DNA of 64,000 nucleotides from Candidatus Parcubacteria bacterium (GCA_023131895.1 JAGLYZ010000002.1:43364-107363), one strand, 5' to 3'; shown: positions 16,003 to 44,626, numbered from the stretch's first letter. Notes: generated by a model not told the origin, from the letters alone. A program made the numbers and translations.

Positions 16003-18924
16003 TTATCTTCGCGCAAAGTCGCAGATGTCTTTGAAATCGCAAAAAGAGCATTGCCAGCCGGGTGTTGCTTTAAAATCGCTCTTTTTTATTTCCTCAATTT
16101 CCTTGATTATTTTCTCTTTCAACCGGTTTTTTTCTTTTTCAGAGCCCAGAAAAAATGTTTTCTTGTTGTCGTTTAGATAATAATAAATCAGTTCTTTTGG
16201 ATCTATTTTGAAAATCTCTTCAGCCGCTATTTGATAAATTAATAATTGCTCTTTATCGTCTAATGATAATTTCTCTTTTGAACTTCCTGTTTTGTAATCA
16301 ATAATCGCGGCTCCGCCTTGTTTCTCATCAATCCTGTCTATCCTGCCGCGCAAACTATTATCCCCTATTTTCAAGCTAAACGGAATTTCCAAAGCTAAAA
16401 CATTGTTGATTTTTAAAATCTTTGGCTGTTTTTTTGAAAATTCGCTGTAAAAATCTTTAATTATTTTTTTACCGAGCTTGTAATACTCCTCTTTTTGTTT
16501 TTTATTTTCATACCATTCATCAATCCAGTTTTTCTCGTAAATTTTAACTAAATAGTCAAAATTTACGAGCCCTTCCGAAGTTTTTTCCCCATCAAAGCCA
16601 AATAAATTGCTTTGGTTTTTTATATTATTCTCATTGGCGTATTTTAAAAAGTCATATAAAGTGTTGTGCATTGCCTTTCCGAATGAAAACACTGCCTTGC
16701 CTTTTATTGGAATTTTTAAAATAAAAGCAAATTTGTACTGCAAAGGACATTTGCTGAAAGCCGCTAATTGCGAGAAAGAAAAATGTTCAGGCAGATAATC
16801 AGGACTTATTCTTGTCCTGCCAGCAGAAGCAACAGGTTTTACTTTTAATAACCCATTAACAGTTTCTCCGTCTTTCTCTTCTTTTTTATAGCCCATTTCT
16901 ATTAAAAAACGCGACAATTTCTTTTTTCTCATGCCGCCGTAATCTTCGGCTGAAAAGAAATAAAGCTCTTTTTTAGCCCTGGTCATTGCCACATAGCAGA
17001 TGCGCCTTTCTTCCTGCAAATGGATGTCGCCAGTCGGTTTTATGTCTTTAATCAATTCTTCGGGAAGTTCTATTAAATCTTTTCTTTCAATGGTCGGAAA
17101 TCTTTTATCTACCATATTAACTAAAAAGACATACTTGAATTCCAAGCCCTTGGCTCCGTGAATGGTCATTATTTTTATCATATCAGGACCCTGTTCCGGA
17201 TCAAATTCAAGCTTTCCCTCTTCACCAGATTCTATTTCCAAATTTATTTCCAGCATGAAATTACTCAAGCTTGGCTCAATTGTTGTTTCTTCAAAATTCT
17301 TTACTTTTTTATAAAATTGATTGAGCAAATCAAGCTGTTCTTTGGCTTCTAGCTTTATTAAATATTTCAGATAGCCTGAATCTTCAAGAAAAGCCACCAG
17401 TATTTCTGAAACTGTTTTTTCTTGCGCAAGGACGCTGTGTCTTTTAATCAAACTCAAAACAAAAGCGATTTTCTCCTGCGTTTTTTGGGAAACTCCTTGA
17501 ATCAAAGCAAGCTCTTCCATTGCTTCATAAAGCGATTTTGTCCTTTTATGGCTGTATTGCGTAAGCTTTATTATGTCTTGCAAGGGAATTTCCAAAAACG
17601 GCATATTTAAAATCCTGTAAACAGCCGTGCTTTCATGATAATTGTCCAAAAGCTTAAAATATGAAATAATATCCAAAACCACGGGCTTTGAATAAAGCCC
17701 CTTTGAAGCTAAAAATTGATAAGGCAAACCAGCGCGTTCCAGCGCTTTGGTAAAAAGATTTGCCGCATCATTTGCCCTTACTAAAATCGCAAAATCATTA
17801 TAAACGGCATCCTTATCCCTTTTAAGAATCTCTAAAATTTTCTTTATTGTTTTCCCGACTTCTTCATCTAAACTCTTGGCGAAAATATGTTCAATTATCC
17901 CGCTTCCTTTTTTCTGGGCAAGCAGTTTTTTATTAATTTTATTTACATATTCAAGCCGGTTTGGGTCGTTGGCTTTTATAAATTTGTAGGCTAAATCCAA
18001 AATATTCTGGCTAGACCTGTAATTTTTAACCAAAGAAATTTCTTTTGCCTTGGGAAAATCCTTTTTGAATTGTATGATATTTGAAAAAGACGCGCCCCTC
18101 CACTTATAAATTGATTGATCGTCGTCGGCGCAGACTGTCAGATTATTCTTTGGCTTTGCCAAAATCTTTATAAGTTCATACTGCGCCCAGTTTGTGTCCT
18201 GAAACTCATCAACTAAAATGTACTTGAATTTCCCCCTGTATTTTTTTAAAATCATGGGTCTTTTTTGAAAAAGTTTCAAACAATAATTAATTAAATCGCC
18301 AAAATCCAATGAGCTGTTTTCCAAAAGCAAGCGCTGATAAACATGATATGCGTTAGCGACTTCTTTTATTCTTTCTGATTCATTGCTTTCCGGCAAGTCA
18401 GTAAGATTGGTTTTCAGCTTATCCGCGTATTTTAAATAATCCTCGGGATAAATTGCCTGGTCTTTGCAATGAGAAAAATGCGAAATCAGAGCCTGGATAA
18501 ATTTTGTCGGGTTGCCCAAGGGTTTGTAATAATCAAGTTCAAACTTGTCTAAATTCCGATAAACCAAAAGCCAGCCAGCAGTATTATCTAAAATTTTGAA
18601 ATCAGCAGGCAAACCTATATCTAAGGCATAATCCCTTAAAATTCTTTCGCAGAAAGAATGAAAAGTGGAAATCCATAAATCCACATAACCAAAAGGTAAA
18701 AGCTTGTCAACCCTTTCCTCCATTTCTTCGGCTGCTTTTTCAGTAAAAGTAACAGCCAGGATTTCCTCTGTTTTAGCCTCTCCTCTTTCTATTAGATAAA
18801 CGATTCTCTGAGTGATAACCGTTGTTTTTCCGGTCCCGGCGCCAGCGACAATTAAAAGCGGCCCATTGCCATAAACTACAGCTTTTCTTTGTTCTTCATT
18901 TAGTTTTTTTAAATCCAATGCCAT
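16003..18924 (-). CDS. UvrD/PcrA-family SF1 helicase fused to a C-terminal Cas4/AddB-type PD-(D/E)xK nuclease with a 4-Cys Fe-S cluster
   Basis: Helicase motifs (AGAGTGKT, VDEFQDTN, VGDDDQSIYKWRGA, TIHGAKGLEF, VAMTRAK). C-terminal: C-x(n) SKCP..., GRIDRID, IIDYKTG (D/ExK), LLIYQ (QxxxY), CSFCDFKDIC. Confidence 0.8.
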   Translation of the reverse strand: MALDLKKLNEEQRKAVVYGNGPLLIVAGAGTGKTTVITQRIVYLIERGEAKTEEILAVTFTEKAAEEMEERVDKLLPFGYVDLWISTFHSFCERILRDYALDIGLPADFKILDNTAGWLLVYRNLDKFELDYYKPLGNPTKFIQALISHFSHCKDQAIYPEDYLKYADKLKTNLTDLPESNESERIKEVANAYHVYQRLLLENSSLDFGDLINYCLKLFQKRPMILKKYRGKFKYILVDEFQDTNWAQYELIKILAKPKNNLTVCADDDQSIYKWRGASFSNIIQFKKDFPKAKEISLVKNYRSSQNILDLAYKFIKANDPNRLEYVNKINKKLLAQKKGSGIIEHIFAKSLDEEVGKTIKKILEILKRDKDAVYNDFAILVRANDAANLFTKALERAGLPYQFLASKGLYSKPVVLDIISYFKLLDNYHESTAVYRILNMPFLEIPLQDIIKLTQYSHKRTKSLYEAMEELALIQGVSQKTQEKIAFVLSLIKRHSVLAQEKTVSEILVAFLEDSGYLKYLIKLEAKEQLDLLNQFYKKVKNFEETTIEPSLSNFMLEINLEIESGEEGKLEFDPEQGPDMIKIMTIHGAKGLEFKYVFLVNMVDKRFPTIERKDLIELPEELIKDIKPTGDIHLQEERRICYVAMTRAKKELYFFSAEDYGGMRKKKLSRFLIEMGYKKEEKDGETVNGLLKVKPVASAGRTRISPDYLPEHFSFSQLAAFSKCPLQYKFAFILKIPIKGKAVFSFGKAMHNTLYDFLKYANENNIKNQSNLFGFDGEKTSEGLVNFDYLVKIYEKNWIDEWYENKKQKEEYYKLGKKIIKDFYSEFSKKQPKILKINNVLALEIPFSLKIGDNSLRGRIDRIDEKQGGAAIIDYKTGSSKEKLSLDDKEQLLIYQIAAEEIFKIDPKELIYYYLNDNKKTFFLGSEKEKNRLKEKIIKEIEEIKKSDFKATPGWQCSFCDFKDICDFARR

Positions 18925-23922: not shown

Positions 23923-24012
23923 GTGTCTCATTGACGTGTCTCAGTCAGGGCGTTTTGTTCAGGAAATGAGACAAATGAGACACTACTTAAGGGTATATTT
24001 GAGTGTCTCAAA
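23923..24012. repeat. cluster of five TGAGACAC/GTGTCTCA half-sites, including the 38-bp palindromic unit AAATGAGACACTACTTAAGGGTATATTTGAGTGTCTCAAA (copy 1)
   Basis: GTGTCTCA at about 23923, 23936 and 24003; TGAGACA(C) at about 23967 and 23976; lies in an unusually long (about 500 bp) intergenic region. Confidence 0.6.
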
Positions 24013-24259: not shown

Positions 24260-24502
24260 TTAACCCTTATATTTTCTCGGATCTGCTCCGTAAGTATGTT
24301 CTGTCTGAATTTTGCCAGTTCTTCCGTGTATTTTTATCTGGCTTGGTTCTTGCTTTCTTGCAATTCCCCGGGCTTTTTTAATTGCTTTTTCTTTATTTTC
24401 AAACACAGCAATCGGTTGTTTGTTTCCTTCTTTGGTTATCTTCCAGTCTTTTACCCCTCCTTTTTTATTTGGAGTAATATGAATTACTAGCCTTTTAGAC
24501 AT
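24260..24502 (-). CDS. DUF2188-family protein
   Basis: 80 aa; pattern LVIHITP..GG.WKI.KEG...PIAVFENKEKAIKKARGIARKQEPSQIKIHGRTGKIQTEHTYGADP matches the DUF2188 consensus (hVvP..gGW.v....a.ra...f.tq.eAi..A..lA......l.iHgrdGrIr...syG.DP). Confidence 0.6.
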   Translation of the reverse strand: MSKRLVIHITPNKKGGVKDWKITKEGNKQPIAVFENKEKAIKKARGIARKQEPSQIKIHGRTGKIQTEHTYGADPRKYKG

Positions 24503-24598: not shown

Positions 24599-25762
24599 CT
24601 ACTTAATAATCCCTCCTTCTTTTTCTATTGTTTTCATTTTATCCTTTATCCCCTCCTCTAATTTTTTATATTTATCCCAAGTAAGCAACCAAACCAAGGC
24701 AATGGAATCAATGGCATCAGCCAAAATATAAATACTAATTTTATCAAGTTTATCTTTATACTCTGAATCTTCTAAAATTTTCATTTTTTCATATTCTTGT
24801 TTCTTAATGCCTTCCGGAATAAAATCAGTGGAAATTAAATAAGAAACAAAACAAACCGCTTTGACATAATCATATATCTTTTTGTTCCCCTTGCCTAAAA
24901 TTTTCTTATCAGCAAGTTTTCCTTTAACTTTTTCTATTTCCCACTTTCTTTTACTTAATTCATCTATTACTCCATAGAGAAAAGATTCTTTGAACTTTTC
25001 TTTCAGCTTTTTATTTTTAATAAACTCAGGCGCACCATCAATATCATAATCAAAAACATCTCTTTTTTTATCAAATTCGTAAAATTTTATTATTTCTTTA
25101 TCCCAGTATTTCTCCATATCTGGATGAATAGTTGAGGGTCCATAAAAGTCTCTATCATCGCAATGCGGCGGCACATGAGCGTCAGATAAATAATGACTTA
25201 ACATTAAGAAATAAAGCGCTATTTGATTATCATTGAACATAATATTGGAACCTTTTGGCTCCTTTTTTTGAATCAAAACCATATCTCTAATAGCGTGAGA
25301 TAGGGCCTCACATCTATCAGGAAGCACATATTTAGACTTTCTGCAGACTTTTTCTTTAAGTCTGGATTCATTAATTCCAAGTTTTCTCAACGAACACAAA
25401 TGATTCGGTGTTCGATTCTTGAATTCTTTAGCTTCTTTTCTTTCTTTCCTTGTTGACGGTTTTTTAAGTTTAAAGGTATGCCCGCCAGTGAGGTTATCAG
25501 AAATAACGTTGTCCGGAAACCAAGCCCCTTTAAGAAATGCATCTTTGTGTTTATCAAAAAATTTCACAAAGCTTTCAGCTTGTTTTTTAAAATGATCGTC
25601 AAAATCGTCGCCGAGAAAATAGCCCCTGAAATTTTTACCAAGAAAACTCCGCCTAAAAGATTTATATCTTTTAGGCCCCTTTAATCTTTCTAGGGCCATT
25701 AAGGCTAGCCAAGCATGAGCTATTTTTTTCATGTTTATTAATATCCTACCATCTATCTCCAC
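24599..25762 (-). CDS. Zn-dependent phospholipase C / S1-P1 nuclease superfamily-like protein
   Basis: LSHYLSDAHVPPHCDD matches the PLC/P1 zinc-binding block (L-H-Y-x-x-D-x-x-x-P-x-H); N-terminal HAW...; 387 aa. Confidence 0.45.
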   Translation of the reverse strand: MEIDGRILINMKKIAHAWLALMALERLKGPKRYKSFRRSFLGKNFRGYFLGDDFDDHFKKQAESFVKFFDKHKDAFLKGAWFPDNVISDNLTGGHTFKLKKPSTRKERKEAKEFKNRTPNHLCSLRKLGINESRLKEKVCRKSKYVLPDRCEALSHAIRDMVLIQKKEPKGSNIMFNDNQIALYFLMLSHYLSDAHVPPHCDDRDFYGPSTIHPDMEKYWDKEIIKFYEFDKKRDVFDYDIDGAPEFIKNKKLKEKFKESFLYGVIDELSKRKWEIEKVKGKLADKKILGKGNKKIYDYVKAVCFVSYLISTDFIPEGIKKQEYEKMKILEDSEYKDKLDKISIYILADAIDSIALVWLLTWDKYKKLEEGIKDKMKTIEKEGGIIK

Positions 25763-25998
25763 AACTTAATACATAGTAGTAAATTGTAGTAAATTTTCAG
25801 GATTTTTTAGTTTGATATATTAATAATGGAGTTGGCAATAATACCTTCTGAGATACCACTTATGGGTTCCACTTGCGGGTGTGGTAAATACACCTTAGAA
25901 CCTAAAATAGAGATATTTTGAGAGGTTTTTGTATATTTTTAGAAATTCCTAATGCCTCTATGTCAGTCTTTATGCTTTATATCAAAATTATAGCACAA

Positions 25999-26036
25999 AT
26001 GAGACACTACTTAAGGGTATATTTTCGTGTCTCAAA
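25999..26036. repeat. copy 2 of the 38-bp palindromic unit (AAATGAGACACTACTTAAGGGTATATTTTCGTGTCTCAAA; 36/38 identity with copy 1)
   Basis: Direct comparison with 23975-24012; lies between the helicase gene stop (26068) and the PLC-like gene start (25762). Confidence 0.6.
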
Positions 26037-26067: not shown

Positions 26068-27909
26068 TTATTTGAAATTATCCTTGGTAATTCTTTCGAT
26101 CCTCAAATGGCTACTAATCTTTTTTAAAAATGGCGACATCGCTTCGGTTCTCAGATATCTAGACTTTTCATATCTTTCATGAAAAGACAAAATAACATCT
26201 TGTTTTGCTCTGGTTAGGGCAACATATAAAACCCTGAGTTCTTCTTTTATATCATGATTACGCGCAGGTATAAAAGTATCATTTAGCCATAGCACAAAAA
26301 CAAATTCTGCCTCTATCCCTTTAGCTGAATACATTGTTGTTACCAGAATTTTATCTTCTTTTGGAATCTCATCTTCTGAATCTAAAAGGCCAAATTTTTC
26401 ATGAATAAATTTGATGACCGAGCCAATGGAATAAAGTTTCTGTGTTTCTTCGTTAAGTGTAATATTCGCTTGAGAAAATAATGTTTCATCAACTAGTAAG
26501 TGGGGGAAAGCTTTTAACTCCTTCTGAAATTCGTTGATATTATCAATAACTCCGTGAAGCTTATTAAGACTAGTAAAGATTTCTTTTATAATTGGGGTTT
26601 CTAAGGTAGAGCAATAATCGTAAAGGGATTTTCCGACTTTCATAGCCTTTCGTCTTATATCAGTAATCTCCTTCGCTTTTAGTCCAACTATTTTTAACCA
26701 TTGTCTAAGGGCAAGACTATCAGAAGAATTTAACATTTTTAATACCAACAGAAGTCGCCAATAATTATCAGGAATATGAGCTTTTTCTTTTAGTTTTGTA
26801 GGTAAGGAAAATTCCGTTTCTAAAGTAGACGCTACTGTTTTTACAAATTTTGAAATAGGACAAAGAACCATAAAATCATTATAATTAAGCGACTCCCCGT
26901 TTCTATTGGTCTTTTTTCCCATTATCTCTTTTATTAACGAGGCAACTTTTTTAATTTGGATACCACTTTTTGTACATTGTAAAGTTAAAATCTTTTGTCC
27001 GTTATCAGCTGGAATATTAACTTTTCCACCAAGATAATTTTCACCCAAAATTAAGGATTGTGATGCTCGTAGAATATGGGGTGGTAATCTGTGAGAATCG
27101 GGAAAATATACTTTCTCCCATTTTTCTGATCCCAAACGTTCTCGTATTCCTTGGGGATATGCATGGCGAAAACCATAAATACTTTGGGCATCATCGCCCA
27201 CAATTATAACTTCGCTTCCCCATTTAAAACTTAATAAATCAATTAATTTTTGATCCATTGGATTCAAATCTTGATATTCATCAATTTGTAAAAATGCTGA
27301 CGGAAAATTAACTTGTTCTTTTTCCAGAATATCGCATGCGTATTTAACAATTCCGTCTAAATCAAAAGTATTATAAAACTTAAATAAGCAATCAAGGTGT
27401 CTTAAAACTTCTTGTCGTCTATCTTCAGGTATGGGACAATCTGTCCGAAAAGAACGAGTGCATTGATAATAATTAATATCTAAATCCAAACGATCTACAG
27501 AAACCTCAAGTTTAAGATCGTCAATTAATTCATTCAATAAAATCTTATGTTCGTTTCGGTCTTTTATTAAGATCGAGAATTTTGAATCTCGTTCAATTAG
27601 AGATGCATATTTATGAACTATGCTCTTAGCATAGGTATGTAAGGTACTAATCCTTGGAAACTCAAAATGAACTTTTACTCCATCGAAAGCATCCTCGCCA
27701 ACCTCTTTTCTTACTTTTTTATCGGTATCTCTACGACTTGTCCGAGTAAATGTAATAAATGATACTTCACGATTAGGATCGTCAATAAGTAGTCCTATCA
27801 TCCGTTCTACTATAGTACTAGTTTTTCCCGTGCCAGGCGCAGCGATAACAATAAGGGGTTTTCCCTTATGATCAATCACTGTTTTTTGTTCTTTACTTGG
27901 AAAACCCAT
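26068..27909 (-). CDS. SF1 UvrD/Rep-like DNA helicase (no nuclease domain)
   Basis: Motifs AAPGTGKT, IDEYQDLN, VGDDAQSIYGFR, TTMYSAKGIEAEFVFV, VALTRAK; 613 aa. Confidence 0.8.
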   Translation of the reverse strand: MGFPSKEQKTVIDHKGKPLIVIAAPGTGKTSTIVERMIGLLIDDPNREVSFITFTRTSRRDTDKKVRKEVGEDAFDGVKVHFEFPRISTLHTYAKSIVHKYASLIERDSKFSILIKDRNEHKILLNELIDDLKLEVSVDRLDLDINYYQCTRSFRTDCPIPEDRRQEVLRHLDCLFKFYNTFDLDGIVKYACDILEKEQVNFPSAFLQIDEYQDLNPMDQKLIDLLSFKWGSEVIIVGDDAQSIYGFRHAYPQGIRERLGSEKWEKVYFPDSHRLPPHILRASQSLILGENYLGGKVNIPADNGQKILTLQCTKSGIQIKKVASLIKEIMGKKTNRNGESLNYNDFMVLCPISKFVKTVASTLETEFSLPTKLKEKAHIPDNYWRLLLVLKMLNSSDSLALRQWLKIVGLKAKEITDIRRKAMKVGKSLYDYCSTLETPIIKEIFTSLNKLHGVIDNINEFQKELKAFPHLLVDETLFSQANITLNEETQKLYSIGSVIKFIHEKFGLLDSEDEIPKEDKILVTTMYSAKGIEAEFVFVLWLNDTFIPARNHDIKEELRVLYVALTRAKQDVILSFHERYEKSRYLRTEAMSPFLKKISSHLRIERITKDNFK

Positions 27910-27935
27910 AAAAAATTATTTACTAGTCAACTTGA

Positions 27936-28118
27936 TTAGATCTTCTTCTTTGATTTATATCTTTGAGAATTTACTCTCCTATCAATTTTGAAGAGTAAAT
28001 CAAAAAATCCGACAAGATTATTGGCTGCTTCAAAAGTTTCTTGTCTGCTTAACTTTTTACCATAATCTTTTTCAAATATTTTCTGAAATCTTTTAATGGT
28101 TTCTTCTGAAATTTGCAT
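27936..28118 (-). CDS. hypothetical small protein (60 aa)
   Basis: ORF sandwiched with small spacers in an apparent operon 28722->26068. Confidence 0.3.
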   Translation of the reverse strand: MQISEETIKRFQKIFEKDYGKKLSRQETFEAANNLVGFFDLLFKIDRRVNSQRYKSKKKI

Positions 28119-28143
28119 GGATTATTTTTTCCCTTTCTAAAAA

Positions 28144-28722
28144 TCATATTTTTAATAAAAGAGGTTTTCGACTTCTGTCGGTCGTGATTTTAATGATTGC
28201 TTTCTGTAATAATTGTTCATATGTTTTAGGTACTTTTATCTCCTCTTTTTTAAAAGAAATAGGTCTCCAATAACTAAAAAATATCCGTTTATATGTTTTT
28301 AATAAAAAATCAACTCGAATAAACTTTTCTGATTGATGTTTTAAGAAAATTGGTAAAAATATAGGTTTTCTTTCTAAACTTTTCTTTTCATCAATAAGTT
28401 GATCGACAATCATCGCTTCATTTTTTTTATTTTCTTGAATTGCTTCACAAATTTTTACATAATTAGATTTACATCTATAATTATCTTTCCCTATCCATTC
28501 TGCTTGAATATTCTCAATTATTAAATTTTCCTTTGAAGCATTAACTAACTTTAAAGTCATAAACCAATCAAGCATAGAGAATCTATCAATAGGTATAGTT
28601 AAATCAAACCCTGCAGCACTCACAGTAGCCGGCACAATACTTACCGAAAACTGCCCGAATGAGACTGGTTTTACTTTGTTTATATCTATTATTTTATCTA
28701 TTTTTACTAAATTTACATCCAT
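28144..28722 (-). CDS. hypothetical protein (192 aa)
   Basis: First gene of the apparent three-gene operon with the SF1 helicase; no recognisable motif. Confidence 0.4.
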   Translation of the reverse strand: MDVNLVKIDKIIDINKVKPVSFGQFSVSIVPATVSAAGFDLTIPIDRFSMLDWFMTLKLVNASKENLIIENIQAEWIGKDNYRCKSNYVKICEAIQENKKNEAMIVDQLIDEKKSLERKPIFLPIFLKHQSEKFIRVDFLLKTYKRIFFSYWRPISFKKEEIKVPKTYEQLLQKAIIKITTDRSRKPLLLKI

Positions 28723-28903
28723 TTTAATTTTTCTTTTTTATGTTTCCTTTGTTTTTTCTGTACCTAGACTCCCAACTCTGATTTAATTTTTTCTCGTATT
28801 TGATATGTAAATACCTCTGTTAAGGGAATAACCTGGAGACAATTTGGACATTTTATTGTTTGTTCTAGAATAGGTTCTTTTTTCAATTAATTTTAACTAT
28901 TAA

Positions 28904-31261
28904 TTATATTTCTAGATCTCCTAATGCAGTTATCATTGGAAGTAAGGTTGGGGAAATCGCTCTTGAAAATTGTGAAATTTTCTCAAAAACCGACATAGCA
29001 CCAACTTTTGCGTCTTTAAAGGTTTTTTCTTTTTCAGCTTTTTTGTCAAAATCAAGGAAAGATATACCCAAAAGAACCATACCATACTTAAATCTTGCTT
29101 CTAAAATTTTAGGGTCAGTTTTTATATTTCCTTTTATCTCCATTTGAAGATAAATATTATCCATATTTATGTAAAAATCGTATCCTGCCTCCTCTCCCGC
29201 ATCTAATACATACAAAGCGCTTTTTTCATCGAACTTATATTTTTCCCACTCGTTTCTTCTCACCTCACAGATGTTAGGAATATCAAGATGAGCCGAGTCT
29301 TGTCTATCTGAACCTTTTTTCTTACCGGGAGACTTTTTCTTTTTATTCTCTCCATTATTATTTCCTTCGTTTTCCTGCGGTTGATCTATAATTATGCAAA
29401 ATTCATTTAAAAATGGTTCAACCCGGGTTATATCAGACACTTCTGATTGAAAGTATAGCTTGTCCCCGATTTTTACATCGGACAGCATTTCGATTGTTAA
29501 CGTGGCAATACCATTCCACAAATTTATAGAATGGTTTTTGGTAGCTATATTGTTAATTTTAATGATTAACTCGCCAGGTTCTTTGTCGCGATTAAAATAA
29601 TCATTTTCAGCATCGGTTTCATATTGGACACGAAATTTTGTATTACTTATGGGACACACTTTTGGCTTTGATTTTGTATATTCTTTATCTAATTTGAAAT
29701 AAGTAGGAAATTCCTTGCCTTTAAATTTCCCTTTCCCTGATACCCCCGTAAGCTTAAACGGATTTTTAATTCTTATACCTTTTGTAAAAAGGCTTGATAA
29801 TGATGGGGATTTTTTTATTATATTCTCTAAGATATCCGCTAACGGTTTTGAATCCTGCAACTTGTTTTCAATATCTTCTCTTCTCCTTTTTTCCCTCAAG
29901 TCTCTAAGTCCTTGGTGATTTTTAATAATATCTTCAAGGGACGCTTCGATTTCATCTTGCATCGGTCCACCGCTCAACCTGTCACGACTATTCATAAACA
30001 AATCTTCTTGCATTCTTCTATTAATTTTTGAACAATCTACCATAACCAAAATACTATCTACGAGGTAACCCATACGAACTGACTGCCGTTCAAAGAATGA
30101 CTTTAACAAAAAACCGTGCGTTTGGCCATTAACTGTAAAAATAATTCCTTCTTGGCCGGCATAAGTTTCTCTTTTTCCGGACTTAAATGCAAAAATTGAA
30201 TAATCCATTTTTTGTCCCCTGATAACAAGTTCACCAGAGCTTGGAAAGTTATCTTCAAGATTTTCTCGTTTATCTTCATCAAGTCTAACACTCAATCCGG
30301 AAAGTATTTTCAAGGGGCTTTTCTCATATCTAACATCGGCCACTTTTATAGGAAGAGCAATATTTGGCATCAAAAGTGAAAGTCTATTATGCAAGTGACG
30401 TGTGGCATCAGATCTTAAGCGACCTGTCCCTATTTGGTATTCATAAACTTTTACAAAAGTTCCGTGAGTTATAGGTTTTTTGTATGGCCGTATATCCTCT
30501 CCGGGCAATAACGGCAGAGACGATGAATTAAAAGAAAGAATTTTACCACCGGGAGCGAGATAAATAAAAACAGAACTTCTCATTTGACCAACTGGACTTT
30601 TCCTTCTAATAATTGTCATACCCCATTTATCATCTATATTTTCTTCTTTTATTCCAGGGTCTCTCTTTGATATGATTAGCTGTAAATTATGTTCCGGACT
30701 ACCAAATCTAAAAACTCCCGTTCCGCCCATTCCAAATTTACCTTGCACAAACTGAATTTTACTTTTATTACCCCTATTAAGAGAAAGAAAAGTATTAAGA
30801 AAAGATTTTGGTGACTGTCCTTCGCCTAAATCAACTATTGAATATGAAGGGTTTGCATTAGTCCCTTTTTCACCAGATGCAATTAAAAAAATATTTTCAG
30901 CAATTTTCGATCTTGTACTAGCGTCAATTAAAGATAACTTACCATTATAAATACCAAAATACTTTTTTTGGGCTTCGGCTATGTTTTTTGGTGCAGCGTC
31001 ACTTTCGGGCTTGATCCCGCTCCTCAAACATTCTCGCATTAATACCGCATCTACAGAATTAATAATTTTTTCAACGAGAGCAGTATCTGGTGCGCTCTGC
31101 TGATTACCGATAGTTGACCAATTTCCCTGACTCTCGTCAATTTCCTTCCACGTATTCTCGTCTTTCCATAAATTAAAACTATTTAATACTCCGATAACTT
31201 CTTTTTCTGTTTCTGCTTTTGCTAATAAAAGCGTTAGATTTTTGATATCTTCATTTACCAT
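28904..31261 (-). CDS. GHKL/Bergerat-fold ATPase domain protein (HATPase_c_3-like, MORC/Hsp90-like ATP-binding site) with about 550-aa uncharacterised C-terminal region
   Basis: N-box EKIINSVDAVL (E-x3-N-x2-DA), G1 box IVDLGEGQSP (D-x-G-x-G), G2 box GKFGMGGTGVF in the N-terminal 200 aa; 785 aa. Confidence 0.6.
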   Translation of the reverse strand: MVNEDIKNLTLLLAKAETEKEVIGVLNSFNLWKDENTWKEIDESQGNWSTIGNQQSAPDTALVEKIINSVDAVLMRECLRSGIKPESDAAPKNIAEAQKKYFGIYNGKLSLIDASTRSKIAENIFLIASGEKGTNANPSYSIVDLGEGQSPKSFLNTFLSLNRGNKSKIQFVQGKFGMGGTGVFRFGSPEHNLQLIISKRDPGIKEENIDDKWGMTIIRRKSPVGQMRSSVFIYLAPGGKILSFNSSSLPLLPGEDIRPYKKPITHGTFVKVYEYQIGTGRLRSDATRHLHNRLSLLMPNIALPIKVADVRYEKSPLKILSGLSVRLDEDKRENLEDNFPSSGELVIRGQKMDYSIFAFKSGKRETYAGQEGIIFTVNGQTHGFLLKSFFERQSVRMGYLVDSILVMVDCSKINRRMQEDLFMNSRDRLSGGPMQDEIEASLEDIIKNHQGLRDLREKRRREDIENKLQDSKPLADILENIIKKSPSLSSLFTKGIRIKNPFKLTGVSGKGKFKGKEFPTYFKLDKEYTKSKPKVCPISNTKFRVQYETDAENDYFNRDKEPGELIIKINNIATKNHSINLWNGIATLTIEMLSDVKIGDKLYFQSEVSDITRVEPFLNEFCIIIDQPQENEGNNNGENKKKKSPGKKKGSDRQDSAHLDIPNICEVRRNEWEKYKFDEKSALYVLDAGEEAGYDFYINMDNIYLQMEIKGNIKTDPKILEARFKYGMVLLGISFLDFDKKAEKEKTFKDAKVGAMSVFEKISQFSRAISPTLLPMITALGDLEI

Positions 31262-31265
31262 ATTT

Positions 31266-31487
31266 CTATAATTTAAATTTTTTATGTTTAGGGAAGTGAA
31301 ATTTTCCTTTTACTTCTCTCAATTTAAAATCAATTACATTAAAAATCTTTTTAATTTCTTCTTCATTATATTGGTAGGCACTTCTATTGGCACAGTTACC
31401 AAGAACCTTAAGTCTTTTTAGAACCTCATTAGTCCTATATGTGGCTAGTCTTTTAAACCTTTCTCTTTTTTCGTTTTGTTTAGTCAT
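31266..31487 (-). CDS. hypothetical basic protein (73 aa), first gene of the operon with the GHKL ATPase
   Basis: ORF 4 nt upstream of the GHKL gene. Confidence 0.4.
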   Translation of the reverse strand: MTKQNEKRERFKRLATYRTNEVLKRLKVLGNCANRSAYQYNEEEIKKIFNVIDFKLREVKGKFHFPKHKKFKL

Positions 31488-31521
31488 AATTTTTATTGTT
31501 TATTTAGCAAATAATAACCTT

Positions 31522-31552
31522 ATACGATAAGGATATGATATCCTTATCGTAT
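31522..31552. promoter_or_regulatory. perfect 31-bp palindrome ATACGATAAGGATAT-g-ATATCCTTATCGTAT (15-bp arms), candidate operator about 35 nt upstream of the 73-aa gene
   Basis: Arms read directly; perfect complementarity. Confidence 0.5.
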
Positions 31553-31622
31553 TGTCAATAGTCTTGCCTGTGGATAACTTTTAGTTGATTTTTTTGGCAA
31601 TTTTTGGCAGAAAATAAAAACT

Positions 31623-31645
31623 GCCCAGCTCATTGCTGGGCGGCT
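31623..31645 (-). terminator. intrinsic terminator downstream of tRNA-Gln
   Basis: On the minus strand GCCCAGCaatgaGCTGGGC followed by AGTTTTT. Confidence 0.5.
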
Positions 31646-31668
31646 CAGTCACCTGACTTAGCATGTGA

Positions 31669-31742
31669 TGGCTGCCGGGTTAGGATTCGAACCTAAATAG
31701 ACAGCTCCAAGGGCTGTTGTCCTACCGTTAGACGACCCGGCA
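31669..31742 (-). tRNA. tRNA-Gln (anticodon TTG), CCA encoded
   Basis: Cloverleaf folded by hand: acceptor UGCCGGG/CCCGGCA (U1:A72, G73 as in bacterial tRNA-Gln), anticodon stem ACAGC/GCUGU with loop CCUUGGA (unusual C33), T-arm AGGUUCGAAUCCUA. Confidence 0.75.
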
Positions 31743-39120: not shown

Positions 39121-39160
39121 GGAATGCTGGAATGCTAAAATGTTAGAATGTTAGAATGAT
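39121..39160 (+). repeat. tandem 8-bp repeat x5 (GGAATGCT GGAATGCT AAAATGTT AGAATGTT AGAATGAT)
   Basis: Read directly; abuts the rmuC stop codon and lies in the rplU upstream region. Confidence 0.6.
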
Positions 39161-40209
39161 TATTGCTCTGGTTTTTCTATTTGTAATGGTTCAACTTTTT
39201 TCTCTCCTTTAGTTATCTTAGCCACATCTTTATCTATTTTGCCAAATTCCTTATATGCCTGATTATAAGTATTTACTGTTGTGCTAATATTATTTCCTAA
39301 CCTCTGCAGAAAACTATCGTAATTCAGCAAATGTTTTTGAAGATTTTCTACTTGCTTTCCAATTTGCTTGGCTGATTCTTCTATCTGCAGAGCGCGCAAG
39401 CCCTGAAGCACGGTTTGCAAATAGGCATAAAAAGAAGTCGGAGAAACAATAATAACATGCTTTTCTTTAAAGGCATATTCAATTAAGTCGTAAGTAGTTA
39501 TCTTTATAGCACCAATTTGATTAATTAGCAAGTCATAATAAATGCCTTCAGAAGGAATGAACATAAAAGCAAAATCCATTGTTCCTTCGTCTGGCCTGAT
39601 ATATTTGGCTGTTTCCTCAATTCTCGTTTTTATATCCTGTTTAAATATTTTTTCTAATTTCTCCCTTTTCTCCGGCTCTTTTTCCTCTAAAATTTTATTG
39701 TAGTTTTCTAAAGAAAACTTGGAATCAATTGGAACAATTTTATCTTTTATAAAAATTACTGCGTCAACAATCTCGCCATCCTTGAATTGATACTGAAGCT
39801 TGTATTGATTTGGCTGAAAAACATTTTTTAGCAGGGTTTCTAAAAAATACTCGCCTAAAATCCCTCTTTGTTTTGGATTAGCCAAAACATCAGTCAATTT
39901 ACCCAGTTGCGATTTAACATCTAAAACATGCTGGTGGTCGCTGTGGATTTTCTCCAACTGGCTGGTTACGTCTCTTACAATCTTACCGCTTTCATTAAGT
40001 TGTTTTTGTAATGACTCTATATTCTTTTCGCTTGTTTTTTCTATTTTTTCCCGGATTTCTTTTAATTCCTGCTGGAACAAATTAAAAACCGGCTCATCTT
40101 CTTTTCTTTCTTTTAATAATCTTAGCTCTTTTCTAATTAAAAAAACTGAGAGCACCACTCCCCCGCTAACAACTAAAACTATTATTAAAACAAAAAACAA
40201 CTCAGCCAT
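39160..40209 (-). CDS. rmuC: DNA recombination protein RmuC
   Basis: N-terminal TM helix, long coiled coil, conserved RmuC block KQRGILGEYFLETLL and C-terminal PD-(D/E)xK-like region; 349 aa. Confidence 0.8.
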   Translation of the reverse strand: MAELFFVLIIVLVVSGGVVLSVFLIRKELRLLKERKEDEPVFNLFQQELKEIREKIEKTSEKNIESLQKQLNESGKIVRDVTSQLEKIHSDHQHVLDVKSQLGKLTDVLANPKQRGILGEYFLETLLKNVFQPNQYKLQYQFKDGEIVDAVIFIKDKIVPIDSKFSLENYNKILEEKEPEKREKLEKIFKQDIKTRIEETAKYIRPDEGTMDFAFMFIPSEGIYYDLLINQIGAIKITTYDLIEYAFKEKHVIIVSPTSFYAYLQTVLQGLRALQIEESAKQIGKQVENLQKHLLNYDSFLQRLGNNISTTVNTYNQAYKEFGKIDKDVAKITKGEKKVEPLQIEKPEQ

Positions 40210-40240
40210 AATAAAAATGCCTCATTCTAAAATGAAAAAT

Positions 40241-40462
40241 CTATTCTTTTATTCCTTTAACTGCTTCTTCTTTTTCTGTGTCAAGCAAAATGATATCCTT
40301 TAAAGTTTTCAAAAGACCAATCCTTTCTTTTTCATCTAAATAAGGCAATCTATCTAAAAATTCCTTTCTTTGTTCTTCTGTTATTAATGGAGTTTCTTTA
40401 ATAAGGCCTTTCAAAGATTTATTTGTGAGAAGAATATTAGTCATAAGTTTATATTTCTCCAA
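40241..40462 (-). CDS. hypothetical small protein (73 aa)
   Basis: ORF overlapping the upstream E/K-rich gene end by 14 nt. Confidence 0.35.
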   Translation of the reverse strand: MEKYKLMTNILLTNKSLKGLIKETPLITEEQRKEFLDRLPYLDEKERIGLLKTLKDIILLDTEKEEAVKGIKE

Positions 40463-42158
40463 AAATAATTGCTAAAATCCAATCTATTAGACCATACTTT
40501 TTTTCTGAGAATTCTTTATAAACTTCTTTCTGCTCGTCTGTAAGTTTTTCTGGCTCAATCCCCCAACTTTCAAGAGTTTCTCTCAAACCTTCCTCATCTT
40601 CTTCCCATTCTCCTTCTAATTCTTCATCTTTTTTTATTAATTTAGTAAATTCTTTTTTTATATTTTCTTTCCCTTCTTTGCCTTTTCCAAATTCTTTTTC
40701 TATTTTCGCTTTTCTTTTAGAATCTTTGTCAATTTCTTTTGATAATTCTCGTGCCGCTACATCTCTTCCCATTTTTTCATAACATTTCTCTATTATTTCA
40801 TCTGTGGTTTTTTCCACTTCCTCTTTAAGAATATCATTCTTTTTTTCTTCAAATTTTATATTCCATTCCTCTCCCAATTCCTCTTTTTTGGTATTAATTT
40901 CTCCATTTTTTATTTCATTACCTATTTCAATAATTTTTTCAAATCTTGTCATTTTTATCTTCCCACCTATTTGCTTCCCTGTTATATTAACTTTATCCTC
41001 ACCAAAAGGATTAATTTTTCTTGCTTTTTTTATTTTTCCAATCTCCTCTGGAGAAATTTCCTGTTTTAGAAAAGCAAGAACATCACTTTCTTCTATTTCC
41101 TTCAATCCTTTCAAATTCTTATTTAAAGTTTCCTGCAGATAATCTACTCTTGACTTAGCATAATCATCAATACTTCCCGCTGCTTTTTGCTTCACAGGCG
41201 ATAATCTGTCCCATTCCTCCTGAAAAAATTTATTTATTTCTTCAATTTTAAAAGTTTCTATTCCTTTTTCTACATAATCATTTTTTTCTCCTATACCTGC
41301 TTCAGTTTTTGTTTTCTTATCTAAATTTTCTCCAACAAGCTTTTCCCAAACTTTTTCTTTAATTGGACCCTCGGGAAGACGTTTGAAAATTGCTGTTTTT
41401 ATATCCGGAGGGAGATCTTCTCCAAAATATTCTATTTCTTCTCTTAAATTTTCAGCGTATTTCCATTCTTTATTCTCTTTATCAAGTAAACCCCAAAATT
41501 CATTCTTATCCCTGACACAATCCATTACTCTGCTTTCATCAAACTCATCTATGTCTTGCCCTGCCAATTCCGAATAATCATCTGGGTAATTTTCTATTTG
41601 CTCTTTTAACCATTCTTTACCTTGACTAACTAAAATATCTTTCATTTGCTCCTCAAGAATGCCTTGAATACTTTTAATAGTATCTTTATCTACGCTAAAT
41701 CTTTCTTTGTCGTAAAATCTTCTATAAATTTCACTTTTTCTATCCTCTGTTTTCTTTCTTTTTTCCTCTTCCAATTTTTCTCCCAATTCAGGAGATTTTT
41801 TCTTCTTTTTTCTCTCTACTTTTTCTTCCTTTTCCTTTTTTTCTTTTTCTTCTTCTCCTTTTCCCGCTTCTTTTTTTCTCGCTTCCAGTATTTTTTCAAT
41901 CTCTTCCTTTGACATACTATCTTTATCTATTTCTTTATCCGCTATTTTTTCTCCTTTTTCTTGTTTTCCCACATTTTTTTTGTTATTATTTTCATCTTTT
42001 AGTTCCGACCTTTTTATTTTTTCTTTTGTTTCGTTTGTAAAATCATCCTCTTTCACTTCCTCCTCTTCTTCAACTGAAAAATTCCAGCCCGTCTCTTTGC
42101 CCGTTTCTTTCATCTCTTTGAGAATTTTTTTTCCTAATCCTCTTTCTCTTTTTCTCAT
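40449..42158 (-). CDS. lysine/glutamate-rich low-complexity protein (569 aa) with hydrophobic C-terminal tail
   Basis: About 45% K+E, coiled-coil character, ends in LIDWILAIIFGEI; immediately downstream of the VirD4-like gene. Confidence 0.5.
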   Translation of the reverse strand: MRKRERGLGKKILKEMKETGKETGWNFSVEEEEEVKEDDFTNETKEKIKRSELKDENNNKKNVGKQEKGEKIADKEIDKDSMSKEEIEKILEARKKEAGKGEEEKEKKEKEEKVERKKKKKSPELGEKLEEEKRKKTEDRKSEIYRRFYDKERFSVDKDTIKSIQGILEEQMKDILVSQGKEWLKEQIENYPDDYSELAGQDIDEFDESRVMDCVRDKNEFWGLLDKENKEWKYAENLREEIEYFGEDLPPDIKTAIFKRLPEGPIKEKVWEKLVGENLDKKTKTEAGIGEKNDYVEKGIETFKIEEINKFFQEEWDRLSPVKQKAAGSIDDYAKSRVDYLQETLNKNLKGLKEIEESDVLAFLKQEISPEEIGKIKKARKINPFGEDKVNITGKQIGGKIKMTRFEKIIEIGNEIKNGEINTKKEELGEEWNIKFEEKKNDILKEEVEKTTDEIIEKCYEKMGRDVAARELSKEIDKDSKRKAKIEKEFGKGKEGKENIKKEFTKLIKKDEELEGEWEEDEEGLRETLESWGIEPEKLTDEQKEVYKEFSEKKYGLIDWILAIIFGEI

Positions 42159-42181: not shown

Positions 42182-44626
42182 TTATCCAAGTCTTGACCTT
42201 TCCATTATTTCTCTTTCAACAAGTGCTCTTGGTCTGCCATATTTTAGCTTGGAGATTTTCTTGACTGGTTCTACAATTTTTGGATTACCTCCAACTGGTT
42301 TAATGGTTTTTACCTTAAATGGAGAAGAAACCTTGTTGTCTATTATCATCTTAACAATAAACTGAAAATTATCAAGATTAACTAAGTCATAACGGGAGAA
42401 TTCCGGCTCAAGGACATTTTCCAAAAATTCAGCATCAGTGGCGCCAATTCTGAAGGCAGCAATTGTTCCCACGTTTCCAATCACAGCGTTTCTAATCTCA
42501 TCGGTTAATTGAGGAATAAACTGGTGTGCTAAAATTAAATCCAAACGGTATTTTCTCGCCTCTGATAAAATAGTAGCAATGGTATCAGTGGTGAAGTTTT
42601 GAAATTCATCAATATATAAGTAAAAATCTTTTCTCTGTTCTTCAGGCAGTTTCCCTCTTTTCATTGCAGCTAACTGCATTTTTGAGACCAAAATCAAACC
42701 CAATAAAGAACTATTCATTTCGCCTGTTTGTCCTTTTGACAAATTGGCTAAAAATATTTTTCCTTCATCCATAATCTTTGCCAAATCAAACCCAGAAAAG
42801 GACTGGCCAATAATATTCCTCATCATTTCATTCTCAACAAATCTGCCAACTTTGGAAACAACATAACCAAGCATATCTGACTTTGTTTCGCCAGTTGTTT
42901 GAGCCCATTCTTTCAGCCAGAACTGCTTTACTAAAGGATCTTTGACTTTTTCTAACCGTTCCTTCATAAAATCATCATCTGTAAAAATTCTTGGAATTTC
43001 CACTAATGTTCCTGGGTTTTCTTTATCTGCCATTAAAGCAAGCATTGCGTTTCTCATATAATGCTCAAACATAGGACCAATGATTTCTGGAGGAAAAAGC
43101 TTGGAGAAAATAGCAATCATTTCAGAAACAGCAAAATCTTTTTGTTCAGGCGTATCCCATTCCAGCATATTTAATCCGCATGGTCTTTCTAAATCAAATG
43201 GTTCAAACAAAACCACATCTTCAGCCCTTTCTTTTGGAATATTTGCTAAAGTGTCTTCAATCAAATCACCGTGAGGGTCAATTACAGCTACCCCTCTTCC
43301 TTGTTCTATATCCTGACGGATCATTTCTCTTAACAAGGATGACTTACCAGTTCCGGTTTGACCAATAATATAACAATGGCGGCGCCTGTCGTTTTCTGAA
43401 GCAAAATAAACATCTTTTTCTTCATTGCGAAAAACTGCCTTACCTATTAAATTAAGTCCAGTAGAGGGCAATTCAGTAGGCGGCGCTGTTTCTTTTGTTT
43501 TGACCCACTTGATTTGAGGGCTTTCAATATTAGATAAAGGGAAATGATAAATACTTGTAAGTTCTTCTAAATTTAGAATACTCCTCTGGTTTTTATTGAA
43601 AACACGAAAACTGAAATTATAAATAAACTGCTTGAGTTTGTTCGCTTTTATTCTTACTGCCTTAAATTCATTGAAATTATTATAAAACTGGGAAAAACCG
43701 CTTTCTAAGTGGTCTAAAATTTCCTCTGCCCTTGATTGTTCCGGTGCTACACTTACTAAACGGATATTTATATCAAAAACCGGCTTTTGGATTTTTGTTT
43801 TAATTGCTTCAAAGCTCGGTTCTTCAAATGGTTTGTCTTTTTCTTTATCTAATAGTCCTTTCTTCTCTTCTTCTTTTTTTGGAGATACTGCTTCAAAAAA
43901 TGATTCAAAAAACTTCATTATTCCGCTTTTCTCTGCTTCAGTAATAGCTGATGAGGCAGATTTTCCTTCTCTGATTTTATAAAGAACCTTTTCTCCCTTA
44001 TACTTCAAATCTATTGGACAAGGCCTAAGAATTATTTGAACTGCCGCTCCTTCGTCAGGATTAATCTTGCTTAAAGTATTAGTAATGCTTGCCAAAGGAT
44101 CTCTATCCAAATTTTTATAAGTATTAATCGGATAATAAATTGCTTTTTTTAATTTTAGATAACAACCAGATACTTTTCCTTCTGGTTCAAATACAGTATA
44201 ATCTTCAGGAACTTTTTCTACTTGAGCGCCTGGATATAATCCCTGAATATTTTTTTCTAATCTGGTTGCCAAATCAGTTGGAACAGCAACATAAAAAGAA
44301 ATATCACTGCCGCCTGTTTGTGAAGCAATTTCTAAAGCAATTCTTGGCGAGCCTTGCAAAAATCTTTTAATAAAATTCGGCTTTTCTAAATACAAAAAAT
44401 TAGAATATATCTGCTCCATTATTCCAATCACTGATTTTATGTCCTGTTTCTCTTTTTCTTCTTTCTTTTCGTATTTCGGTAATCTCACCAAAAACAAAAC
44501 CATATCCAATGATTTTGTTAATTGCTTAATTTTTCTTTTCTTAATAACTAAAAACCAACCTGTTCCAGCAAGAATAAAAGCTATAAAAATTAAAATCGTA
44601 AATAAAAAATACATAAATAGTATCAA
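42182..44626 (-). CDS. TraG/VirD4/TrwB-like coupling-protein ATPase (FtsK/HerA superfamily) with N-terminal membrane anchor
   Basis: N-terminal TM helices (ILFMYFLFTILIFIAFILAGTGWFLVI), Walker A IIGQTGTGKSS followed by VIDPHGD (cf. DPKGE of VirD4/VirB4), Walker B LYIDEFQNF, C-terminal LILAHQFIPQL (cf. VirD4 ...TQS..QL); 814 aa. Confidence 0.55.
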   Translation of the reverse strand: MILFMYFLFTILIFIAFILAGTGWFLVIKKRKIKQLTKSLDMVLFLVRLPKYEKKEEKEKQDIKSVIGIMEQIYSNFLYLEKPNFIKRFLQGSPRIALEIASQTGGSDISFYVAVPTDLATRLEKNIQGLYPGAQVEKVPEDYTVFEPEGKVSGCYLKLKKAIYYPINTYKNLDRDPLASITNTLSKINPDEGAAVQIILRPCPIDLKYKGEKVLYKIREGKSASSAITEAEKSGIMKFFESFFEAVSPKKEEEKKGLLDKEKDKPFEEPSFEAIKTKIQKPVFDINIRLVSVAPEQSRAEEILDHLESGFSQFYNNFNEFKAVRIKANKLKQFIYNFSFRVFNKNQRSILNLEELTSIYHFPLSNIESPQIKWVKTKETAPPTELPSTGLNLIGKAVFRNEEKDVYFASENDRRRHCYIIGQTGTGKSSLLREMIRQDIEQGRGVAVIDPHGDLIEDTLANIPKERAEDVVLFEPFDLERPCGLNMLEWDTPEQKDFAVSEMIAIFSKLFPPEIIGPMFEHYMRNAMLALMADKENPGTLVEIPRIFTDDDFMKERLEKVKDPLVKQFWLKEWAQTTGETKSDMLGYVVSKVGRFVENEMMRNIIGQSFSGFDLAKIMDEGKIFLANLSKGQTGEMNSSLLGLILVSKMQLAAMKRGKLPEEQRKDFYLYIDEFQNFTTDTIATILSEARKYRLDLILAHQFIPQLTDEIRNAVIGNVGTIAAFRIGATDAEFLENVLEPEFSRYDLVNLDNFQFIVKMIIDNKVSSPFKVKTIKPVGGNPKIVEPVKKISKLKYGRPRALVEREIMERSRLG

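Follow-up and report, generated by a model that had tools for sequence, protein, structure and literature searches.

A putative paraMORC-like ATPase cassette and a solitary helicase beside tRNA-Gln in a Candidatus Parcubacteria contig

Introduction

The paraMORC proteins are prokaryotic ATPases that combine a GHKL domain with an S5 domain and are found in restriction-modification contexts (Iyer, Abhiman & Aravind 2008, PMC2292703). Several of their groups carry a signature of their own, namely an ExxxH motif in the S5 domain for paraMORC2, a restriction-endonuclease-fold (RE-fold) domain for paraMORC3 and a TIR domain for paraMORC4 (PMC2292703), and VcSduA, of the paraMORC3-type Shedu systems, is a GHKL ATPase fused to a DUF4263 nuclease domain of the PD-(D/E)xK type (PMC12137116). 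In this paper we analyse positions 26068-31742 of a 64,000 nt stretch of a Candidatus Parcubacteria contig ("the window", from whose first letter all coordinates are counted), where genes for a 785-aa GHKL ATPase and for a 613-aa superfamily 1 (SF1) helicase lie close to tRNA-Gln. An earlier interpretation made from the sequence alone, which we call the sequence-only reading, had proposed that the two form one new defence system in the manner of Gabija or Hachiman. Gabija consists of GajA, an OLD-family ATPase/Toprim nuclease, and GajB, a UvrD-like helicase, and Hachiman of HamA (DUF1837) and the superfamily 2 (SF2) helicase HamB.

On balance, our results favour a different view, in which the interval is a variable accessory region beside tRNA-Gln that holds independent modules, a two-gene cassette with the ATPase and an unrelated helicase, and not one system. 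The cassette is best read as a paraMORC-type defence module that would be either restriction-modification-like or toxin-antitoxin-like.

Results

The helicase and the ATPase do not co-occur

Co-occurrence in related genomes had been set beforehand as the test of a joint helicase-GHKL system, and because it is absent in both directions the pairing is largely refuted as a single defence system. Neighbour clustering over 87 distinct GHKL loci returned no helicase cluster, and the window's helicase is present in 0/87. Conversely, a homologue of the GHKL protein or of the 73-aa, 192-aa or 60-aa proteins encoded in the interval is found in 0/92 helicase loci, 13 of which encode close relatives of the helicase (44-81% identical). 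When the window proteins were searched with tblastn against 93 GHKL loci, the helicase gave a single weak match (L050, 24% identity, 6 kb away), and this is an orthologue of a 973-aa UvrD-nuclease of the window and not of the 613-aa helicase. The adjacency of the helicase to the GHKL cassette is coincidental.

A variable slot beside tRNA-Gln

The slot next to tRNA-Gln is a variable hotspot with accessory cargo, since a relative with the same gene frame holds different genes there. The related loci L185-L187 share with the window the order GtrA, DnaX, tRNA-Gln (ttg), cargo and 192-aa gene, with a DnaX that is 68% identical to the window's and a 60%-identical homologue of the 192-aa protein downstream of tRNA-Gln and the other cargo, which comprises an SDH-family protease, a DUF6941 protein and an 89-aa open reading frame (ORF). 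Neither the 60-aa ORF nor the helicase follows the 192-aa gene in L185-L187. With the frame shared and the cargo different, the GHKL cassette and the helicase are therefore each an accessory insertion next to a flank gene that is specific to the lineage, and the tRNA-Gln neighbourhood is indeed the kind of integration hotspot or island for which the sequence-only reading had taken it. The five ORFs and the tRNA-Gln predicted in that reading are all present on the minus strand, in the following arrangement:

31669-31742, minus strand: tRNA-Gln (anticodon ttg), upstream border of the variable slot (ARAGORN)
31623-31641, minus strand: terminator-like hairpin after the tRNA, GCCCAGC...GCTGGGC and then a T run (consensus scan and sequence)
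31558-31553, minus strand: TTGACA -35 hexamer, with a 31-nt perfect palindrome, ATACGATAAGGATAT-C-ATATCCTTATCGTAT, directly after it at 31552-31522 (sequence, palindrome search, promoter scan)
31266-31487, minus strand: 73-aa basic, predicted helical protein (ORF)
28904-31261, minus strand: 785-aa paraMORC-like ATPase (ORF, motifs, structure model)
28144-28722, minus strand: 192-aa protein, from a rare family confined to the lineage, which flanks the slot in synteny (ORF, homologues)
27936-28118, minus strand: 60-aa predicted ORF (ORF only)
26068-27909, minus strand: 613-aa solitary UvrD/Rep-type SF1A helicase (ORF, Pfam, PADLOC)

The stop of the 73-aa gene and the start of the 785-aa gene are 4 nt apart, and a spacer of 181 nt separates the 785-aa and 192-aa genes. 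An operon structure is plausible, not proven, for both gene groups, and the hairpin on the tRNA side would insulate the cassette from transcription further upstream. In base composition (GC 0.28-0.35) the interval is indistinguishable from the remainder of the window.

The 192-aa family is rare, with 22 clusters among 1.84 billion representatives, and no homologue was found in any GHKL or helicase locus examined. The 192-aa gene is thus a lineage-specific flank that lies outside the GHKL cassette and is no conserved partner of the helicase. For the 60-aa ORF we found no family match in Pfam, PADLOC, NCBIfam or PHROGs and no homologue near any helicase relative; among the GHKL loci its one match, in L010, is marginal (E 0.001, 41 aa aligned at 32% identity) and lies about 2.6 kb away from the cassette.

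The ATPase is of the GHKL plus S5 kind

The 785-aa protein, which is identical to NCBI KAT95_01040, carries the three motifs of the GHKL superfamily on a Bergerat fold: motif I (ExxxNxxDA) as E64-x3-N68-x2-D71-A, motif II (DxGxG) as D144-L-G-E-G148 and the motif III lid (GxxGxG) as G174-K-F-G-M-G-G-T-G182. The sequence-only reading had already picked out these motifs, and they vary little or not at all among 46 homologues and are invariant also in 57 more diverse sequences. The protein of the window itself has no match in sequence searches of Pfam, PADLOC, NCBIfam, PHROGs and PDB, and 19/46 relatives match HATPase_c_3 of Pfam weakly (best E 1.5e-4). In its structure model a GHKL domain is joined to an S5/transducer domain, as in ATPases of the MORC, MutL, Hsp90 and Topo VI-B kind, and this fusion of GHKL to a C-terminal S5-fold transducer is the one by which MORC and paraMORC proteins are recognised. 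Motifs, model and the weak matches of the relatives together support an assignment to the MORC/Hsp90/MutL type; the sequence-only reading had named the MORC/Hsp90/HATPase_c_3 type. From the model the protein can be divided as follows:

N-terminal helices
about 55-235: GHKL domain
to about 430: S5/transducer domain
433-493: helical linker
about 520-626: immunoglobulin-like (Ig-like) beta-sandwich with the motif YETDAENDYFNRD
about 660-785: C-terminal domain

Some 550 aa behind the ATPase domain had been described as being of unknown function. The S5/transducer, the helical linker and the Ig-like domain can now be recognised in this part, and the description stands for the C-terminal domain, an alpha/beta unit with a helical hairpin which is without a known fold. 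Its conserved segments are YDFYINMDN (followed by ..L..E.K), ARFKYGMVLLG and AISPTLLPMI. The resulting D...ExK pattern prompted a test for a PD-(D/E)xK nuclease of the kind known from paraMORC3 and VcSduA (PMC2292703, PMC12137116). The D...ExK positions are not strictly conserved, and a profile of the domain found nothing in PDB. Modelled alone (predicted local distance difference test score 80.6), the domain has a beta-alpha-beta-beta-alpha-alpha-alpha topology with the ExK inside a helix, and this model has no nuclease-like structural neighbour. There is therefore no recognisable nuclease in the ATPase, and the DUF4263 PD-(D/E)xK domain that marks type I-D Shedu and paraMORC3 proteins is not present. 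The C-terminal helical hairpin is a candidate for a constitutive dimerisation element.

No NCBIfam model of MutL, GyrB or HtpG matches the 785-aa protein at E <= 0.1, and its family is present in just 512/185,579 species in a scan of one genome per species (about 0.3%). For these two reasons the protein is not a housekeeping MutL, GyrB or HtpG, in line with the sequence-only reading; it is also missing from the syntenic site of the relative described above.

A widespread and mobile ATPase family

The ATPase family is large, patchy over Bacteria and Archaea and inserted at differing sites. A word-indexed search gave more than 3,400 relatives (clusters), mostly of about 775-850 aa. Among the 512 species with a family member are representatives of the candidate phyla radiation (CPR), Bacteroidota, Bacillota, Chloroflexota, Planctomycetota, methanogens and Nanobdellati. 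Proteins with 55-60% identity to the window's ATPase are encoded in CPR3, Marinimicrobia, Hydrogenedentota, 'Thioglobus' and one Nanobdellati archaeon. Such identity across phyla, where the DnaX of a close relative reaches just 68%, together with the patchy distribution and the differing flanks, leads us to regard the cassette as horizontally mobile. In about 13 loci serine or tyrosine recombinases or rve transposases are encoded within about 6 kb of the ATPase, and six IMG/VR contigs carry a family member. Literature searches found no publications on the family.

Adjacency to a tRNA was rejected as a general rule for GHKL cassettes, as a tRNA lies within about 300 nt in just about 4/60 loci. 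Cassettes that do adjoin a tRNA occur in L022 (9441-9525), L026 (9529-9613) and L041 (12525-12601), with tRNA-Leu about 150-250 nt upstream or tRNA-Arg about 170 nt downstream, which hints at an occasional tRNA-associated insertion. BipA, encoded less than 10 kb away in L009 and L078, is on the opposite side of the cassette, and this synteny was judged not meaningful.

The 73-aa partner and the putative operator

In the window's clade the recurrent unit is the 73-aa gene together with the ATPase gene. The first three ATPase contexts have unrelated housekeeping flanks and a sole common neighbour, a gene for 69-76 aa immediately upstream. Over the 87 distinct loci the 73-aa family lies directly upstream of the ATPase in about 30, typically with a 4-nt overlap with the ATPase start, and tblastn found the protein in 35 of the 93 GHKL loci. 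Its 699 homologues are all about 73 aa long and share the pattern R-F...R-T-N...L-G-N-C-x-N...Y-x-Y...K-I-F...F-K-L. The 73-aa proteins have no family in Pfam, PADLOC, NCBIfam or PDB, and searches of Pfam with 36 members, of a PDB profile library and of PHROGs returned noise-level coiled-coil matches only, among them DUF4145, ZapA, one JGI label 'DUF1456' and influenza HA2, all of which we rejected.

The cassette's 31-nt palindrome adjoins the -35 hexamer and spans the promoter spacer and the -10 region. In 5/27 cassettes from different taxa its core, TAAGG-N9-CCTTA, lies in the 150 nt that precede the small gene, with 7 matches overall in the 1.37 Mb of all loci and about 0.0008 expected per upstream region. 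Several other cassettes have different promoter-proximal palindromes. The cassette thus shows a toxin-antitoxin-like layout, with a small upstream gene, a coupled effector gene and a palindrome at the promoter, and the 73-aa protein is a putative autoregulator that would bind the operator, or a putative gating partner of the ATPase.

Other partners of the ATPase family

The partners of the ATPase family elsewhere point to restriction-modification-like biology. In a sister clade with ATPases of 816-848 aa, a cluster of proteins of about 400 aa adjoins the ATPase in 19 loci, mostly convergently and 17-107 nt past its stop; the cluster representative matches N6_N4_Mtase in Pfam and MTase_II in PADLOC. 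Another N6_N4 methylase is found in three further ATPase loci, and no linkage of the family to an SF2 helicase or an endonuclease was seen. The homologues on plasmids are more distant (23-33% identity). On Halogeometricum pHBOR02 a site-specific DNA methylase is divergent from the ATPase homologue, on a Hymenobacter plasmid the homologue lies between an integrase gene and SIR2, DUF262 and PAPS-reductase genes, and on Ensifer pC its neighbourhood includes PAPS-reductase, VapBC and integrase genes. Some other distant relatives of the ATPase lie in defence islands. Settings of this kind were described for paraMORC ATPases by Iyer et al. (PMC2292703).

Other upstream partners are a 338-398-aa protein in at least 13 loci and proteins of 227-233 aa or 126-144 aa. 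None of the three has a Pfam or PADLOC match, and a hidden Markov model of the 73-aa protein does not detect them. Examples in which the 338-398-aa gene overlaps the ATPase gene are L036 (8988-10004) and L065 (8787-9983), with at least 11 other loci, and by eye the protein appears to have a ribbon-helix-helix-like N-terminus and a winged-helix-like C-terminus. A three-gene arrangement of this partner, the ATPase and the methylase is present in L065, L076 and L084, and by clustering also in L077.

The 613-aa protein is a solitary helicase

As the sequence-only reading had it, the 613-aa protein is a UvrD-like SF1 helicase without a nuclease domain: Pfam finds UvrD-helicase (1.3e-35) and UvrD_C (8e-18) and no nuclease, and the SF1A motifs GTGKT, DEYQD, GDDAQSIY, AKGxE and VALTRAK are intact. 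Its best PADLOC model is GajB (PDLC00117, 2.8e-49, full length). The NCBIfam scores lie far below the cut-offs for Rep (124/951 bits), PcrA (117/911) and UvrD (78/1144), so that orthology to these is not indicated, and the only solved structures matched at E <= 1e-5 are Rep, PcrA, UvrD and AddA-type helicases, with Rep, PcrA and UvrD nearest.

The helicase family comprises about 1,970 relatives of about 611-624 aa. A conserved partner was looked for and rejected, as the upstream genes differ in every relative and none is conserved in eight distinct contexts. The gene follows SIR2-HerA in a defence island (L095), lies between HsdR-RadC-RAMA and a HerA-like gene (L179), or belongs to a mobile element (L189, 81% identical) by a methylase C-terminal tail and Hypoth_Ymh, Replic_Relax and type IV secretion system coupling-protein genes; in L097, L182 and L184 it is found among housekeeping genes. 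A metagenome scan with the helicase alignment was uninformative for context, the matches listed being almost all UvrD-like helicases of 22-26% identity. We regard the protein as a solitary accessory helicase of the UvrD/Rep-like kind that is frequently mobile.

Two observations touch on this helicase. In L095 (2884-7875) SIR2_2, DUF87/HerA and a 624-aa helicase relative form an apparent three-gene operon with gaps of -8 and 9 nt, in a defence island whose other members include ResIII, a Schlafen/AlbA_2 protein, a Y1 transposase and ParE; the trio may be a helicase-extended SIR2-HerA variant. In the window, 7 kb off, a 973-aa protein (16003-18924, minus strand) fuses a UvrD-helicase to a PDDEXK_1 nuclease in AddA-like fashion; in addition to the 613-aa helicase, the organism thus encodes a separate helicase-nuclease of canonical appearance.

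Further features of the slot and the window

The slot modules of L185 (3975-5871) and L187 (555-2451), with their SDH-family ClpP-like protease, DUF6941 protein and 89-aa ORF, have no meaningful PADLOC match and could be another unrecognised accessory module. The spacer behind the ATPase gene of the window contains, at about 28764-28886 on the minus strand, a TTG-started ORF of 40 codons (MKKEPILEQTIKCPNCLQVIPLTEVFTYQIREKIKSELGV) with a half zinc-ribbon motif CPNC, which may be the remnant of a former slot gene.

Downstream of the interval, two copies of a 42-nt direct repeat (23971-24012 and 25995-26036, 95% identical), which has a palindrome of its own (TTTGAGACAC...GTGTCTCAAA), bracket a DUF2188 gene (24260-24502) and a gene for 387 aa (24599-25762), and this unit had been called a repeat-bracketed cassette. 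The 80-aa DUF2188 protein (24260-24502, minus strand) matches the PADLOC candidate-defence singleton PDC-S16 over its full length (E 2e-18). The 387-aa protein, earlier labelled PLC/P1-nuclease-like, has no sequence match in Pfam, PADLOC, NCBIfam or PDB. Further away, 40001-42000 shows extreme GC skew (about -0.5) and AT skew (-0.3 to -0.38) over a 569-aa ORF (40449-42158, minus strand) without a Pfam match; the next ORF (42182-44626, minus strand) encodes an 814-aa TrwB/VirD4/HerA-like ATPase, and RmuC is at 39160-40209.

Discussion

A possible mechanism

On this view, module 1 (31558 to 28904) is a self-contained, horizontally mobile two-gene cassette, with a sigma-70-type promoter, an overlapping palindromic operator, the 73-aa gene and the ATPase gene. 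We suggest that the ATPase would be a constitutive dimer held together by the C-terminal helical hairpin, like MORC, MutL and Hsp90, that its N-terminal gates would close on ATP binding, and that, in a module which tells self from non-self, it would play the restriction-like part by clamping DNA. Where the clade has a linked methylase, this enzyme would confer immunity. In the methylase-less clade of the window the co-translated small protein would be in control, as an operator-binding autorepressor, a gating partner or both, much as in a type II toxin-antitoxin pair or in a restriction-modification system controlled by a C protein. The effector step might be cleavage by a cryptic site, or entrapment or compaction. 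Module 2 is the solitary helicase, which elsewhere is found on mobile elements, in defence islands or among housekeeping genes.

Several points weigh against reading the cassette as a defence module. Its anti-phage activity, toxicity, DNA binding, dimerisation and mechanism are putative, and neither a nuclease nor an effector domain of another kind could be recognised. The window's own clade is without a methylase as well as without a nuclease, its partner being the 73-aa protein, and that small protein shows no recognisable DNA-binding fold, with no ribbon-helix-helix, helix-turn-helix or AbrB signature. The same putative operator is common to just 5/27 loci. Many cassettes lie between plain housekeeping genes and not in obvious defence islands, no phage record or genome with an ATPase homologue was found among the phage genomes searched, although six IMG/VR contigs carry one, and neither the 73-aa protein nor the ATPase is covered by a PADLOC or PHROGs model.

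Alternative explanations

That the SF1 helicase and GHKL operons act as one new defence system, analogous to Gabija or Hachiman, strikes us as very improbable. In its favour, both operons lie side by side on one strand in the variable region next to the tRNA, and the best PADLOC score of the helicase is to the GajB model. Set against this are the lack of any co-occurrence (0/87 GHKL loci, 0/92 helicase loci), the unrelated 192-aa gene which lies between the helicase and GHKL genes and is syntenic in relatives, a helicase without a conserved neighbour in eight distinct contexts, and a PADLOC run without a GajA or HamA match. Even less credible is a GHKL protein with a housekeeping role, as an Hsp90-, MutL- or topoisomerase-like chaperone or repair factor of a small-genome bacterium. 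A protein that matches none of HtpG, MutL and GyrB in NCBIfam, occurs in about 0.3% of species, is missing from the same site in a close relative and always stands alongside variable small partners or methylases does not fit such a role.

The remaining alternatives concern what the cassette does. It could be a purely selfish addiction module, in which the ATPase is toxic unless the small protein checks it and the methylase linkage reflects a shared mobile residence; we consider this unlikely, if worth keeping in mind. The small upstream gene with its 4-nt junction or overlap, the palindromic operator at the promoter, the mobile and patchy distribution and the VapBC pairs that adjoin in several loci all suit such a module. 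An ATP-driven clamp of about 785 aa with 55-60% identity across phyla would be unusual for a simple toxin, however, the tight methylase linkage across a whole clade looks functional and not incidental, and the small protein is absent from more than half of the family members. Somewhat more doubtful to us is a true restriction enzyme with a cryptic nuclease in the Ig-like or C-terminal domain, which in the methylase-less clade would be modification-dependent (type IV-like) or work with an unlinked methylase. The methylase linkage in the sister clade and on pHBOR02 speaks for it, as do the strongly conserved acidic and polar motifs (YETDAENDYFNRD and YDFYINMDN..E.K) and the precedent of paraMORC3 and VcSduA, in which GHKL is fused to a nuclease (PMC2292703, PMC12137116); the tests of the D...ExK pattern turned up no recognisable nuclease. 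A further proposal, which we put forward tentatively and rate as improbable, is that the 73-aa/GHKL pair is a so far undescribed, methylase-free immune module of Bacteria and Archaea, in which an ATP-gated, nuclease-less MORC-like clamp would entrap or compact invading DNA in a manner comparable to MORC-mediated silencing, the small basic partner would gate the clamp and autoregulate the cassette, and the methylase-linked sister clade would be an epigenetically controlled version.

Implications

Should the cassette prove to serve immunity or addiction, a widespread family would be added to the defence repertoire of both prokaryotic domains, including many CPR and DPANN genomes, and this family escapes recognition by PADLOC (v2.0.0), Pfam, NCBIfam and PHROGs. 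The cassette would also offer a tractable prokaryotic relative of the eukaryotic MORC ATPases and a natural comparison between methylase-linked and small-protein-linked versions. For annotation the lesson is that adjacency in a tRNA hotspot should not be read as functional coupling: the helicase-GHKL pairing dissolves once relatives are examined.

Comparison with known systems

By the sequence-only reading, no named defence system is known to pair an SF1 helicase with a GHKL ATPase, and in our PADLOC run no system was matched. For Gabija the likeness is confined to the full-length alignment of the helicase to the PADLOC model of GajB (2.8e-49); PADLOC finds nothing like the ATPase/Toprim protein GajA in the seven proteins encoded nearby, and the helicase's matches to solved structures include no chain with the name GajB. 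The Hachiman arrangement is likewise not found, since the helicase belongs to SF1 as a UvrD-type enzyme and PADLOC gives no HamA or HamB match.

Type II toxin-antitoxin operons and restriction-modification operons controlled by a C protein resemble the cassette in architecture only, with a coupled small upstream gene and a palindromic operator that varies between variants. Unlike the small protein of type II toxin-antitoxin operons, the 73-aa protein has no ribbon-helix-helix, helix-turn-helix or AbrB signature, and the operator binding and toxicity in the cassette are putative.

Among structures, MORC3, the N-terminal domain of MutL, Hsp90 (TRAP1/GRP94), GyrB 43K and Topo VI-B share 9-14% identity with the ATPase, which lacks the CW zinc finger of MORC3, the C-terminal endonuclease of MutL, the C-terminal domain of Hsp90 and Toprim. 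Like the ATPase, VcSduA is one large protein that carries its GHKL domain at the N-terminus and has a clamp-like middle part, is encoded alone or nearly so and is patchy in its distribution.

The closest likeness is to the paraMORC proteins, in which a GHKL domain with intact ATP motifs likewise stands at the N-terminus, together with an S5/transducer domain and a family-specific C-terminal extension, and which are sporadic and laterally mobile in Bacteria and Archaea. A linkage to methylases is seen in part of the ATPase family, namely in the sister clade and on pHBOR02, but not in the clade of the window. The linked SF2 helicase, Vsr, HNH and RE-fold endonuclease known from paraMORC contexts are not seen in the ATPase family. 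The ATPase differs also in its Ig-like domain and in the C-terminal domain without a known fold, and the clade of the window in its pairing with the 73-aa protein. The comparison with paraMORC1-5 covered RE-fold and TIR domains, whose absence was checked indirectly, and we call the protein paraMORC-like without assigning it to one of these groups.

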